Shown one piece after another: positions 7,173 to 21,075 of a stretch of DNA of 64,000 bases (its first letter is position 1; every line of letters begins with the position of its first letter). The position numbers and the translations under genes are program-made. A model generated the notes under the pieces. The model saw only the letters and a program-made list of their open reading frames with translations. It ran no database searches and had not been told where the DNA came from. Source of the DNA: a virus; the IMG/VR virus record IMGVR_UViG_3300021400_000020, positions 1 through 64,000 of that record; one strand, written 5' to 3'.

Positions 7173-7237
7173 CCACCGTTCCCGAAAGTTCCGCTTTCGG
7201 TTCTTTCTTTCCCTGTTCCCGAAAGTTTCGCTTTCGG
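7173..7237 (+). repeat. Hairpin-A elements x2
   Basis: Copies at 7173-7200 and 7212-7237, between two minus-strand genes but in + orientation. Confidence 0.9.
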
Positions 7238-7243
7238 CTCTCA

Positions 7244-7519
7244 TCACTTAATAATACACAGCAAGCCAGGCTCGCCATAACTTGTCAAGTGAAGAGTAAA
7301 ACCTAAACCCGCCAGCATCGCAAGATAATCATCCAAAGGGTCGTTCTCACTATCCTTTCGAGGATAAGCACCAAGCGCATTACGAAGCATACCACGGGTG
7401 AAGACCATATCGGCTATGCCCTCAATATCAACAGGAGCATACGACCGCACAAAATCCTCAATCACCGATGGATAGGTGACAGTCTGAATAGAACTATTTT
7501 CTTCCTCCTTCTCTTTCAT
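7244..7519 (-). CDS. Hypothetical protein
   Basis: 91 aa. Its start overlaps the stop of the upstream gene by 1 nt. Confidence 0.6.
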   Translation of the reverse strand: MKEKEEENSSIQTVTYPSVIEDFVRSYAPVDIEGIADMVFTRGMLRNALGAYPRKDSENDPLDDYLAMLAGLGFTLHLTSYGEPGLLCIIK

Positions 7520-7794
7520 CAGTTCACGACTATCTTAAATTCGTTCACACTCAGTAATAAAACATCACGCAATGTCCGCACAACACCACTATCAGGAAAC
7601 TGCACAGTATGACGATGATGCTTGATGTCGTACTTGATACACACAACATTCTCACACTCCACAAGACGACCGTTCTTCGCCATATAAACACAATCAAACG
7701 GAATACGACGCTTTTCGGCATCTTCACGCTCCATCACCAAACCCACCTTCTTGTAACTGAGCAACTTCGGAAAACGTTTGTCTGGAATTCTCAT
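7519..7794 (-). CDS. Hypothetical protein
   Basis: 91 aa. No motif recognised. Confidence 0.6.
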   Translation of the reverse strand: MRIPDKRFPKLLSYKKVGLVMEREDAEKRRIPFDCVYMAKNGRLVECENVVCIKYDIKHHRHTVQFPDSGVVRTLRDVLLLSVNEFKIVVN

Positions 7795-11987: not shown

Positions 11988-13526
11988 ATGGCACATGATT
12001 CTAACATAACGGCTCCACAGTCGGGTATGACATTCAATGTCACACCAAAGGAATCCCGTATGCCACTCGTTTCCGTCGAACTGGAGAAAAGAGTCATTGG
12101 AGAACTGATGAATTCCAATAAGGAAAATTTCTTCAAGATAAAGGAATTCCTCTCTGAAGACTGCTTCTACATGTCGATGAACAGGACAATCTACAAAGCT
12201 ATAAAGGCAGTCTGCGAAAACGGAGATAACCCCGACATGCCCATCGTCTGCAACGAAATCGTCAGACAAAACCCAAACCTGACACTCCCGCAAGTCATGC
12301 CAGAAGTCGCCAGCATCGTAGCCTATTCGGTGTTCACGGGACAACTCGCAAGAAATGCCATCATACTACAAGACTTCGCACGACGAAGACTGCTGAAAAT
12401 GACATTCGACACCTTCAGCGCAAAGGTGAACCAACTCGATACAAGCGTAGAGGAAATCGTGGAGAACCTGCATGACAAACTGAAAACCATCATGCAGGAC
12501 TCAGGTGTCAACGCAAAGACACTCACAAACGCACTCGAAGAACTCTACGAACGCGTCAAGACAAACCTCTCCACGGGAGGACAACATGGAAGCTACACTG
12601 GCTTCGAATTCATCGACGACAGAGGGGGATTCCAACCGTCAGACCTAATCGTACTCGGAGGAAGAACATCACAGGGAAAGACATCGTTCCTGCTCTCCAT
12701 CATCTCACACCTCATACGAGAGGGAGAAAAGACAGCACTCTTCTCACTCGAAATGACAAACGAACAACTCGCGGCTCGACTGGTATCAGGAGAGACCTTC
12801 GACATGAAAGCACACCCAACCGCCGCGGAACTCACAGAACAACCAATCATCCTTACATCAAACACCCTCCTGAACGTCAAACTTACCGATGCACAGTACA
12901 AGGTATTCGACCGAGCCATCGGAAATATCATGGTGTTCGGTGATTGCCTCTACTTCGACGACCGCTCACGACTCTCTATCGAAGTCATCATCTCCTCCAT
13001 CCGCACACTGCACTCAAAATATGGCATCAAGGGAGCTGCCATCGACTACCTCCAATCACTCTCATCGGCTGCTGATACGAGGGGAACGACACTCGAACTG
13101 CTCTACGGAGACTGGTGCAGACAACTGAAAAACCTCGCAAAGGAACTGAATATATGGATTATCATCGTGTCACAGCTGAGAAGAGACAACGACCCAGAAC
13201 CAACCAAGGAACAACTCAGAGGATCCGGACAGATCGAAGAGAATGCCGACCAGATATACCTTATCTACCGACCTGAATTCTACGGCAAGGAATACACAAT
13301 GGAAGGATTCGAGGACATCTCCACCAAAGGAACAGCACTCGTTAAACTCGATAAGGGACGAAACATAAAAACGGGAGCATTCATCTGCGGATGGGATGCA
13401 GCAACAACGAAATACTATAACATCCCTTACGACAGACTGCCACACAAGACAGACATCGTAAAGACAAACCAAACGACAGTCCAAACCGCCCACTCCGAAG
13501 AAGGACATAAGGACTACCCGTTTTAA
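11988..13526 (+). CDS. dnaB: Replicative DNA helicase DnaB
   Basis: 512 aa. N-terminal LEKRVIGELM, Walker A GGRTSQGKTS, IIVSQLRR and GSGQIEENAD motifs. Confidence 0.9.
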   Translation: MAHDSNITAPQSGMTFNVTPKESRMPLVSVELEKRVIGELMNSNKENFFKIKEFLSEDCFYMSMNRTIYKAIKAVCENGDNPDMPIVCNEIVRQNPNLTLPQVMPEVASIVAYSVFTGQLARNAIILQDFARRRLLKMTFDTFSAKVNQLDTSVEEIVENLHDKLKTIMQDSGVNAKTLTNALEELYERVKTNLSTGGQHGSYTGFEFIDDRGGFQPSDLIVLGGRTSQGKTSFLLSIISHLIREGEKTALFSLEMTNEQLAARLVSGETFDMKAHPTAAELTEQPIILTSNTLLNVKLTDAQYKVFDRAIGNIMVFGDCLYFDDRSRLSIEVIISSIRTLHSKYGIKGAAIDYLQSLSSAADTRGTTLELLYGDWCRQLKNLAKELNIWIIIVSQLRRDNDPEPTKEQLRGSGQIEENADQIYLIYRPEFYGKEYTMEGFEDISTKGTALVKLDKGRNIKTGAFICGWDAATTKYYNIPYDRLPHKTDIVKTNQTTVQTAHSEEGHKDYPF

Positions 13527-18685: not shown

Positions 18686-18884
18686 AGAAGATAATTATGG
18701 CTTACGGAATCTGATGTTGTGAGCATGTTGAAAAACAGTCATTCATAAAACAATTCTTACTTAATATTGCAGAGTTGATGTAAAAGAATCACTGCATTCA
18801 CCCTCTTTTTGTGGTGACGATGCAGAAAAATATACGGCAAAAATTGCACATATTAACTATAAATGTGTAACAAATTCGCTTAAA

Positions 18885-18920
18885 ATTGCACACTACAACA
18901 ATAGTGTGCAATTTTTGTTT
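18885..18920 (+). terminator. Intrinsic terminator
   Basis: ATTGCACACT/AGTGTGCAAT 10-bp stem followed by TTTTTGTTTT. Confidence 0.7.
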
Positions 18921-19188
18921 TATTGAATTTTGAGTCATAATTTTTTTCGACCTGTAAAAATTTGCGCCATTCCGAATTTTTTTTTGATTTTTTTTGTTTT
19001 TTTTTCACGCGCACCCCACGCGCCCCGCAAAGGAACACGGGCGTTCCTCGCCTGGTTCGGAACGTTCGCAAATATGCCTGAATGATTCCACCAAAACGAG
19101 CAGCACACACCCAGACGATCGCCATAAAAGAGGTACGCGTAGAAATGGCATCCAAGACAGCGAAAAAGCATCTTTTCAGATTCGAGAG

Positions 19189-19237
19189 AAAAACACCCGA
19201 TTTTGTAAAGTCGAGTTTGCAAAATTGGGTGTTTTTT
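19189..19237. terminator. Long hairpin, possibly a bidirectional terminator
   Basis: AAAAACACCC ... GGGTGTTTTT with an inner TTTTG/CAAAA stem. Confidence 0.5.
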
Positions 19238-19340
19238 CGCTTTGTTGATGCTAAGTGAAATTTTTTTCAATCTTTAGATTGAAGCGAAAATGCGCTTAAA
19301 ATTTTTGTAGTGAAAATTTGCATGAATGAAAAACACTTTA

Positions 19341-19348
19341 TAACTTTG
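19341..19348 (+). promoter_or_regulatory. -7 box TAACTTTG
   Basis: TAnnTTTG match upstream of the 19508 gene. The distance (about 160 nt) is long. Confidence 0.35.
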
Positions 19349-19507
19349 CATCGTCGAAAACAAAAAAACGGCAACAAAACATTGACTGATTAGAGGTCTG
19401 GTTAAAGAGGCTTTTACACCTAAATAAACAAGCCCAACGTGAAAAGCAGCACGGCAAAAATTGCTAAAAATAACAAAATTTTCAAACTTAATAAAACTTT
19501 TTACATT

Positions 19508-20092: not shown

Positions 20093-20642
20093 TAGCATCA
20101 TGGCGGGTGTGAATATTGGAACGTAGGGCGGTATCGTACACCGCCACACCCTCAAAAATAGGTTGGCACGACGGTGCTAATCAGGCTTTGAAAACAAAGT
20201 TTTGCATAGAAAAAAGTGGTTGCTTTGAGCGCGGATGGTTTGCGGTTGCTTACATTCAAATTTGCTCCTTTGCAAAGCTGTTGAAAAGTTGAAATAGTTC
20301 TTTTACATTTCTGGAACAATCAAACGAAAACGTAATCTTTCGGTTTTTGTAGCAAATAGGGAATCAAACGACTTTCGGGCGTGCTTTGTTAGTAGTAAGT
20401 GCTTTGCACACTGGGTTCTCTCTGAAGCTAAGGGATGCTGCTACATTGTCGAATGTTGGGCGCGGAAAACACGGAGAACATAAACGCATGAATGTTGAAA
20501 ACTTTTGGTTCATGTGTTGGTTCATATACTGAAATACATGCCGTTGTGTTGTAACACGTTGGCATCCGTGAATTGCAGGGAAAAAAGTTTATTGCTCTCT
20601 TTTTAAGTGTCCACCAGGTTCCGACCTGATGGGTGCTTCTCT
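20093..20642 (+). ncRNA. ORF-free structured region (candidate large ncRNA or leader)
   Basis: No ORF of 60 aa or more on either strand. Nested hairpins include GGCGGT-atcgtac-ACCGCC inside GGGTGT/ACACCC, CATGAA..TTCATG, ATGCC-GTT-GTGT-tgta-ACAC-GTT-GGCAT and CCACCAGGT-tccg-ACCTGATGG. Confidence 0.4.
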
Positions 20643-20727
20643 GGGAGTGTGCAGCATCATATCATTGGGATGCTGCTGGCGTGCTTCTCGAAGACATGCA
20701 AGGGGTTCGACTCCTCTCACTCCCCCA
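20643..20727 (+). ncRNA. tRNA-like cloverleaf (non-canonical)
   Basis: Acceptor GGGAGTG/CACTCCC. T-arm AGGGG-TTCGACT-CCTCT with a canonical T-loop. The D-position arm is 8 bp with a 10-nt loop. The anticodon-position arm is 5 bp with an 11-nt loop (CTTCTCGAAGA). The 3' tail is C-CAA. Confidence 0.5.
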
Positions 20728-20773
20728 AATTAGAATGAAGAATAACAAATCAAAATTATAGGAGAAAAGAAAA

Positions 20774-21025
20774 ATGAACGAAACAGTCACTATGTACCAT
20801 GTAGCATATACGGCTTTCAATGGTTCGAGAAACGAAAACGATTATACGACCTCAAAAGATGCTCGTGAAAAGTTGGATGGCATCCGCTCTCAGTATGTAA
20901 ACTTTGGTTATCATTTGACAAATCGTGAAAATAATGACGGCAAGTTACGTGAAGTGTGGAAGCACCCAAAACGTGCCGATATGGTTATTGAAAATTATCA
21001 ACACGAAGTAACATTTATTCTCTAA
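20774..21025 (+). CDS. Hypothetical protein
   Basis: 83 aa. Preceded by AGGAG (20760-20764), one of the few SD-like sites in the window. Confidence 0.6.
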   Translation: MNETVTMYHVAYTAFNGSRNENDYTTSKDAREKLDGIRSQYVNFGYHLTNRENNDGKLREVWKHPKRADMVIENYQHEVTFIL

Positions 21026-21075
21026 CAATATTCACTAAAACCTTTACGGTGGTGTAGGCAAACCGTTTCTCAAAA

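Follow-up and report, generated by a model that had tools for sequence, protein, structure and literature searches.

A tRNA-like element without an anticodon loop adjoins a large structured RNA in a rumen phage genome

What use would a phage have for an RNA that keeps the top half of a transfer RNA (tRNA) and has no place for an anticodon? The question is raised by an element of 85 bases on the + strand, at positions 20643–20727 of a 64,000-nt viral sequence (positions 1 to 64,000 of IMG/VR record IMGVR_UViG_3300021400_000020, hereafter the window). It is a four-way junction with a tRNA-normal top half and no anticodon loop, and it lies between a conserved, structured, non-coding RNA of ~550 nt and an 83-aa open reading frame (ORF). 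The reading that we favor, tentatively and at a little under an even chance, is that the element is part of a polycistronic transcript, a tRNA-like module that does not decode and at which RNase P and 3′-processing enzymes cut.

Read along the + strand, the element consists of GGGAGTG-T-GCAGCATC-ATATCATTGG-GATGCTGC-TG-GCGTG-CTTCTCGAAGA-CATGC-A and, after A20700, of AGGGG-TTCGACT-CCTCT-CACTCCC-CCA. The 5′ strand of the acceptor stem (GGGAGTG, 20643–20649) forms 7 bp with CACTCCC (20718–20724); the end pair is G1-C72, with G20643 at position +1 and U20642 at −1. A single U (20650) stands at the tRNA U8 position. Hairpin 1 (20651–20676), at the place of the D-arm, has an 8-bp stem (GCAGCATC/GATGCTGC) and a 10-nt loop (ATATCATTGG; as RNA, AUAUCAUUGG) with a terminal GG that may be compared with G18 G19. 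Beyond a 2-nt UG linker (T20677 and G20678), hairpin 2 (20679–20699) occupies the position of the anticodon arm with a 5-bp stem (GCGTG/CATGC) and an 11-nt loop (CTTCTCGAAGA). In the minimum free energy (MFE) fold, the same hairpin has 8 bp, a bulged A, and a CUCG tetraloop; neither form has a 7-nt anticodon loop. One A (20700) makes up the variable region and is followed by the T-arm (AGGGG / UUCGACU / CCUCU, 20701–20717), which has the G53-C61 pair and the loop residues U54 U55 C56 G57 A58. The T-loop word GGTTCGANTCC has its sole exact match in the window at 20704. The 3′ acceptor strand CACUCCC and then CCA complete the element (20718–20727); the CCA (20725–20727) abuts the stem, and the discriminator is absent, or, in an alternative register, C73 is followed by CAA. 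The initial annotation had described the 7-bp acceptor, the T-arm with G53-C61, the 8-bp/10-nt arm at the D position, the 5-bp stem with an 11-nt loop at the anticodon position, and the 1-nt variable region, and each of these was recovered exactly where it had been placed.

The cloverleaf is a real structure and not a chance pattern. The MFE and centroid folds of the + strand both correspond to it at −36.8 kcal/mol compared with −25.7 ± 3.2 kcal/mol for shuffled sequences (z = −3.49), and an equally stable fold occurred in 0 of 200 shuffles. The − strand folds more poorly (−28.2 kcal/mol, z = −1.6), and one G·U pair in the T-stem and one in hairpin 2 become C·A on the complementary strand. Within the whole 681-nt intergenic RNA, the acceptor stem pairs with probabilities of 0.93–0.96 and both inner hairpins with 0.98 or higher; the canonical register of the T-arm has a probability of only ~0.2 in that context because the energy model favors a register with 6 bp and a 3-nt loop. 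A full acceptor stem (7/7) and T-stem (5/5) with G53-C61 and a TTCRA loop occur together at one site in the real window and at one or more sites in 5 of 300 Markov-simulated windows, in a scan that left the two inner hairpins out of the required features. Only three substitutions distinguish the haplotypes of the element: A20646G changes A4-U69 to G·U, C20724T changes G1-C72 to G·U, and T20677G falls in the linker. All three are neutral for the + strand RNA fold and would not be tolerated on the complement, which is weak evidence because the changes are so few.

Judged by its sequence, the element is tRNA-derived because its acceptor, on both strands, and its T-arm are almost identical to those of tRNA-Trp and tRNA-Leu genes. 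Five loci of the metagenome collection were found to carry the 20-mer GGTTCGACTCCTCTCACTCC: L012, another copy of the element; L010 and L011, two tRNA-Trp(CCA) genes in a tuf-tRNA context; L013, a tRNA-Leu(TAG) gene within a tRNA cluster; and L009, an unclassified 3′ end. The T-arm of the element is identical to the T-arms of the tRNA genes in L010, L011, and L013. Compared with the bacterial tRNA-Trp genes of L010 and L011 (AGGAGTG...GGGGGTTCGACTCCTCTCACTCCT), the element agrees at 22 of 24 nt over the T-arm and 3′ acceptor strand and at 6 of 7 nt in the 5′ acceptor strand. A covariance model made from the element alone (R1) retrieves real tRNAs at E = 5e-5 to 2e-3, and those of the loci above score 27–31 bits (E = 5e-5 to 4e-4); the phage yielded no second copy of the element with this model. 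The suggestion in the initial annotation of a degenerate or decoy tRNA was therefore upheld as far as descent from a tRNA is concerned, by the likeness to tRNA-Trp and tRNA-Leu and by the R1 matches; decay and decoy function are weighed below.

The element is not recognized as a tRNA by standard methods. ARAGORN, which the initial annotation had proposed as a check, was run in tRNA and transfer-messenger RNA (tmRNA) modes and called no genes in the window. Rfam produced no match to the element at gathering thresholds, and the best sub-threshold match under relaxed thresholds was to tRNA-Sec (21 bits compared with a cutoff of 47). With canonical tRNA (RF00005), the element has in common the 7-bp acceptor, the 5-bp T-stem, G53-C61, the UUCGANU loop, U8, and a D-type loop ending in GG. 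It differs in its D-stem, which has 8 bp instead of 3–4; in the one nucleotide, not two, after the acceptor; in having no 7-nt anticodon loop with U33, an anticodon, and purine 37; in a variable region of 1 nt instead of at least 4; and in a CCA without a discriminator. No amino acid identity set appears recognizable (C73 or none, G3-C70, no G-1, and no anticodon).

Some gut and rumen phages have recoded stop codons and carry suppressor tRNAs, and this precedent would allow the element to be a genuine decoding tRNA of unusual shape, such as a suppressor for recoded stops. Neither hairpin, however, has a 7-nt loop with U33 and an anticodon; the genes of the window stop at TAA, TAG, and TGA alike; the intergenic region is not opened by any single recoding; and ARAGORN and Rfam were negative. 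We consider a decoding function extremely improbable.

The tRNA-like domain of tmRNA combines an acceptor stem and a T-arm without an anticodon arm, as the element does. The halves of the element are contiguous, whereas tmRNA has an mRNA-like insert, pseudoknots, and a tag reading frame, none of which is present here; the element also has G3-C70 in place of G3·U70, and the tmRNA mode of ARAGORN was negative. Two other loci were recorded alongside these comparisons. L009 (156–211) contains the 20-mer and ends in GGAGGTTCGACTCCTCTCACTCCGACCA followed by a terminator, with no tRNA or tmRNA call from ARAGORN or Rfam; its contig begins just 188 nt upstream and may have truncated a longer stable RNA, of which this would be the 3′ end. 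L015, a phage contig that is unrelated but also encodes PcfK and PcfJ, has two tandem tRNA-Gly genes with the unusual anticodon ACC at 13193–13346.

A third suggestion of the initial annotation was that the element is the core of a phage attachment site (attP) that reproduces a host tRNA 3′ end, and a match of only the 3′ half to a host tRNA was to count in its favor. Such a core, taken from a tRNA or tmRNA gene, would serve site-specific integration. The 3′-terminal 20–22 nt are indeed identical to tRNA-Trp and tRNA-Leu genes of other environments. The 5′ acceptor strand is present as well and is perfectly paired, in a complete fold rather than a 3′ fragment, and the idea fails on its own terms because the tRNA match is not confined to the 3′ half. 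None of the five loci found with the 20-mer in the metagenome collection is an identifiable host tRNA from the rumen samples of the phage. No integrase was found in Pfam/PHROG scans or in precomputed domains over ~81 of the 97 kb of the phage genome, which is the extent covered by our integrase and tRNA negatives. ParA and a circular 97-kb assembly point to an episome, and the site lies midway in an array of co-oriented genes. The attP reading is thus not supported, and we regard it as very unlikely.

The ~550-nt region that precedes the element on the + strand (20093–20642) extends from the stop codon of a 194-aa ORF to the element. It contains stop codons of all three kinds in all six frames, and haplotypes differ there by 1- and 2-nt indels. 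The possibility that this intergenic region is coding through stop-codon recoding was rejected, as no single recoding opens an indel-tolerant frame. L014, a 152,853-bp rumen scaffold, is the only distant relative (PcfJ, 83% identical); its upstream RNA is 90.8% identical to that of the window, whereas the flanking genes are 78–88% identical. Four haplotypes were folded to a consensus of 161 pairs in 26 helices, in which 98.8% of cells are paired. Compensatory double changes were found at 7 pairs compared with 0–1 in slid controls, a number matched in 0 of 500 shuffles; the fold had been predicted on the same four sequences used for this count. The best-supported helices are at ~20126–20145, 20160–20181, 20400–20411, 20478–20525, and 20605–20638. 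The last of these is a conserved 14-bp hairpin on the + strand, which ends four nucleotides before G20643 and is the final helix of the upstream RNA; its changes in L014 are one-sided (A-U to G·U and U·G to C-G). A resemblance of this hairpin (window 20605–20638, L014 7115–7177) to ctRNA_pGA1 scored 22.7 bits against a cutoff of 45 and was not used; it is probably a mere resemblance between hairpins. No Rfam model matched the upstream RNA, including the ROOL and GOLLD models at E up to 10, and neither iterons nor an obvious origin was found in 20093–20640. The region is a candidate for a new large structured phage RNA that has not been described previously.

The two arms of the element that depart from tRNA form share several exact words with this RNA. 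The 11-mer GGGATGCTGCT occurs at 20667, in the 3′ strand of hairpin 1, and at 20432–20442 in the upstream RNA; the 9-mer GGCGTGCTT occurs at 20678 and at 20378–20386; and the 8-mer AGCATCAT occurs at 20653 and at 20094. Together, these non-overlapping words amount to 28 nt (11 + 9 + 8), a sum reached in 0 of 1000 shuffles of the upstream region. A further 9-nt word, GTGCTTCTC, is found at 20681 in the element and at 20633–20641 in the upstream RNA, and it was excluded from the sum because it overlaps the 9-mer GGCGTGCTT. The corresponding module of L014 has no comparable enrichment of shared words. The sharing suggests either an origin of the odd arms at this site or an ability of the arms to exchange strands with the upstream RNA; alternative pairing between the two has no weight in the thermodynamic ensemble.

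RNase P binds the stacked T-arm and acceptor and measures from the elbow, a ruler that it shares with RNase Z and the CCA-adding enzyme (PMC4919913). The features of an RNase P substrate are present in the element: a 12-bp acceptor/T stack, a T-loop elbow, G at +1, and U at −1. In the proposed scheme, the upper half of a tRNA is retained (an acceptor stem and T-arm in one stack, with the T-loop, U8, and a D-type loop that ends in GG), and what decoding requires has been lost (the anticodon loop, the short D-stem, and the variable loop). The phage transcript would carry, in order on the + strand, the 194-aa ORF, the ~550-nt structured RNA, the element, and the 83-aa ORF. The cut by RNase P would fall between U20642 and G20643, and 3′ processing at ~20724–20727 would be carried out by RNase Z or exonucleases together with the CCA-adding enzyme. 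CCA addition would produce the end CUCCCCCCA, with six C residues (C73 plus a non-templated CCA) compared with five in the genome. In this way the upstream structured RNA would gain its 3′ end and the downstream mRNA its 5′ end, and a small, stable RNA of tRNA-like form would be freed. We infer all of these steps, from co-transcription through cleavage by RNase P and RNase Z to a role for the released RNA.

Several observations lead us to favor this tRNA-type punctuation. The near identity to tRNA-Trp genes, the retrieval of tRNAs with R1, the haplotype substitutions, and the company that large phage RNAs such as ROOL and GOLLD keep with tRNAs all speak for it. The part of a tRNA that RNase P reads has been kept and the parts used for decoding have been discarded; the cloverleaf is favored on the + strand and is maintained in the full-length context; and the upstream 550 nt are conserved, structured, and on the same strand. 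Another observation concerns transcription. There is no Bacteroidota −7 box between the element and the next ORF, and a perfect match to a Bacteroidota-type promoter (TTTG-N20-TAACTTTG) lies on the + strand at 19313–19348. This promoter is the likely start of a transcript that runs from the 194-aa ORF through the structured RNA and the element to the 83-aa ORF.

A different element is found at the same site in the relative. L014 is colinear with the window at 77–98% identity over 21 kb, with the sole exception of window positions 20652–21029 (+ strand), which have no counterpart there and whose place is taken by the non-homologous L014 positions 7179–7534. The L014 site has an element of ~100 nt that folds at −34.6 kcal/mol (z = −3.5), with a 9-bp terminal stem (GGUAUGUGU/GCACAUACC) around a three-way branch and a 3-bp mini-hairpin; neither a T-loop nor a match to tRNA was found in it. 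An unrelated 71-aa ORF follows, and conservation returns 8 nt past its stop codon. Homology between the window and L014 elements was considered and rejected; the alignments are inconsistent, and the matches over the first ~10 nt and over UGCAA...UCGA are too weak. The common feature at the site is a structured RNA closed by a stem and not the tRNA shape. The tRNA-like element and the 83-aa ORF together make up an exchangeable unit.

The initial annotation had raised the possibility of a tRNA-like 3′ module of the upstream RNA that serves as a substrate for RNase P or the CCA-adding enzyme. Of its readings, this is the one that fits best, given the adjacent structured RNA, U-1, G1-C72, the 12-bp stack, and the T-loop; the module cannot be an obligatory part of the upstream RNA, however, because it is swapped out together with the downstream ORF in L014. 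Several further points weigh against tRNA-type punctuation. The element at the L014 site is not tRNA-like and has no T-loop, so tRNA-type processing is not required at this site. The swap takes in the ORF and could tie the element to the ORF instead of the upstream RNA. The 8-bp stem at the D position and the 1-nt variable region would distort the core, perhaps as far as the elbow where RNase P docks. The 3′ tail is CCA without a discriminator (or C73-CAA) and not the canonical RCCA. Finally, the element is known from near-identical copies only; as no diverged copies were found, there is no covariation within the element.

The element could instead be the uncleaved 3′ domain of a ~640-nt ornate phage RNA, a tRNA-shaped handle exchangeable between phage lineages and comparable to the tRNAs in covalent linkage with GOLLD RNAs. 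Its contiguity with the conserved structured RNA, the 28 nt of words that its odd arms share with that RNA (0 of 1000 shuffles), and the closed multi-branch element with a 9-bp terminal stem at exactly the same site in L014 are consistent with such a domain, and the linker regions of GOLLD sometimes hold tRNAs (PMC12286853). RNase P would, however, be expected to cleave a canonical acceptor/T minihelix with U-1 and G+1; the exchanged segment has its boundary at the 5′ end of the element and takes in the ORF; and the ROOL and GOLLD models were not matched. We consider an uncleaved domain rather unlikely.

Absence of the element from L014 could also mean that it is the decaying relic of a phage tRNA gene and is now functionless, and its rejection by ARAGORN and Rfam and its occurrence in a single closely related group of rumen contigs are in keeping with this. 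Decay normally breaks stems and does not extend them, whereas all four helices of the element are fully paired and two are longer than those of a tRNA. The fold stability (z = −3.5) and the finding of only pairing-preserving substitutions also argue against a relic, which we judge quite unlikely.

That the top half is perfect while the decoding parts have become longer, perfectly paired stems, an outcome that simple decay would not give, is in keeping with a trans-acting tRNA mimic. The element, released or still embedded in the transcript, would then be an accessory cassette that acts as a decoy or sponge for a host or phage factor that reads the top half of tRNAs; proposed targets are a toxin or defense nuclease acting on the acceptor end, a modification enzyme, EF-Tu, or the CCA-adding enzyme. 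The exchangeable accessory module lies upstream of the genes for PcfK, PcfJ, and an ArdC-like anti-restriction protein, and the element is the sole tRNA-related sequence in the part of the genome covered, where no tRNA genes were found. On the other side, the adjacent ORF received no defense or anti-defense annotation in the scans made, and its homolog P0013 has no tRNA-like element upstream. A decoy is compatible with the processing model and does not exclude it; taken as the explanation of the element, it is possible though improbable.

The 83-aa ORF of the exchangeable module (20774–21025, + strand) is preceded by an A-rich leader with AGGAG (20728–20773, + strand). Its relatives are few, with one found by word search and two among 1.8 billion representatives. 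P0013, its only distant homolog, is 43% identical and lies on a 534-nt contig, where a plain hairpin is found upstream. The AlphaFold2 prediction for the ORF was unstable across models, and Foldseek gave no convincing fold match in the PDB; the best, an archaeal ribosomal protein with a TM-score of 0.52, was judged uninformative. A 483-aa ORF has no real relatives.

The neighboring genes are all on the + strand. The window encodes ParA, a DnaB helicase, a DnaD-like loader, PcfK, PcfJ, an ArdC-like protein, a 1602-aa methylase-helicase, a 2425-aa tape-measure protein, and a DNA methyltransferase. Exact-protein look-ups placed the same genes on a 97,040-bp rumen scaffold (scaffold_390 of ERZ28612966, labeled L005, L017, L020, L022, and L025), which additionally encodes an S49 head protease and HU. 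PcfK lies at the start of this scaffold and the 83-aa ORF at its end; therefore, the assembly is circular or terminally redundant, and the genome is that of a ~97-kb circular rumen phage or phage-plasmid. The combination of plasmid-type genes (ParA, PcfK, PcfJ, and the ArdC-like gene) with head and tail genes makes a phage-plasmid of rumen Bacteroidota possible, and the host phylum is probably Bacteroidota. A Bacteroidota conjugative transposon, considered on account of PcfK, PcfJ, and ArdC, was ruled out by the tape measure, the head protease, and the circular scaffold. A 750-nt intergenic region (18686–19438) has long T tracts, a GC-rich patch (19008–19060), and two strong terminators of the hairpin-plus-T-run type (18882–18915 and 19189–19236), after which comes the perfect promoter match at 19313–19348.

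All copies of the element come from rumen metagenomes. Nothing similar to 20100–20800 was found among INPHARED phages or PLSDB plasmids. Five exact DNA patterns (the 23-mer of the T-arm and 3′ acceptor, both flanks, and two conserved cores from the upstream RNA) had no match in IMG/VR, and neither did PcfJ and the 194-aa protein. GTDB representative genomes contained no relative of the 83-aa ORF or of the PcfJ alignment.

How do known systems compare? Wilusz, Freier, and Spector (2008) are said to have described two tRNA-like elements, mascRNA and MEN-beta, which lie at the 3′ ends of MALAT1 and NEAT1; there, RNase P cleavage reportedly forms the 3′ end of the long RNA and frees a small tRNA-like RNA. 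The present element resembles these in being a cloverleaf of tRNA-like form that does not decode and that immediately follows a long structured non-coding RNA. Those transcripts are eukaryotic and nuclear, whereas this element belongs to a phage of a probable Bacteroidota host, its processing is predicted, and an ORF follows it. The bacterial Y RNAs (YrlA) reportedly contain a tRNA-like module and are sometimes phage encoded (Chen et al. are said to have described them in 2014). Like the element, YrlA is non-coding and imitates a tRNA in its T-arm, D-arm, and acceptor; it differs in having a loop that closes its tRNA-like part and a Ro-binding stem made by the ends of the RNA. Neither Rsr nor RtcB was found near the element, and there was no Rfam match.

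ROOL and GOLLD typically adjoin tRNAs or are covalently linked to them (PMC5737381, PMC12286853). The likeness lies in a large (~550-nt), multi-helix rumen phage RNA joined to a tRNA-shaped unit; the differences are that the covariance models did not match, that the attached unit is a mimic and not a tRNA, and that the host is probably a member of the Bacteroidota. The tRNA-like structures at the 3′ ends of plant viral RNAs are recognized by RNase P and the CCA-adding enzyme (PMC5723415), and they similarly mimic the top half of a tRNA, with a CCA end, at the end of a longer RNA. Those structures belong to RNA genomes, are often pseudoknotted, and can be aminoacylated, whereas the element is a DNA-encoded four-way junction without a recognizable identity set.

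Non-decoding tRNA mimics joined to long non-coding RNAs are thus already known, in eukaryotes (mascRNA) and in RNA viruses. The context here is more interesting than the element alone: an undescribed RNA of ~550 nt with an exchangeable 3′ cartridge. More speculatively, and on present evidence improbably, the element and the 550-nt RNA may together constitute a single new class of large ornate RNAs found in phages of rumen Bacteroidota, in which the 3′ cartridge is a mimic of the tRNA top half whose odd arms may be built from, or exchange strands with, the main RNA. Such a class would be a functional parallel to the tRNAs tethered to GOLLD nanocage RNAs, and it could recruit or divert RNase P, the CCA-adding enzyme, or defense nucleases that target tRNA. 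We infer both the processing and the decoy function from one narrow phage lineage. Should the element act as a decoy, it would amount to an RNA-based counter-measure. Should its processing be as predicted, it would offer a simple case of tRNA-type punctuation that ends a large RNA of a Bacteroidota phage and a way into the question of why large phage RNAs travel with tRNAs.

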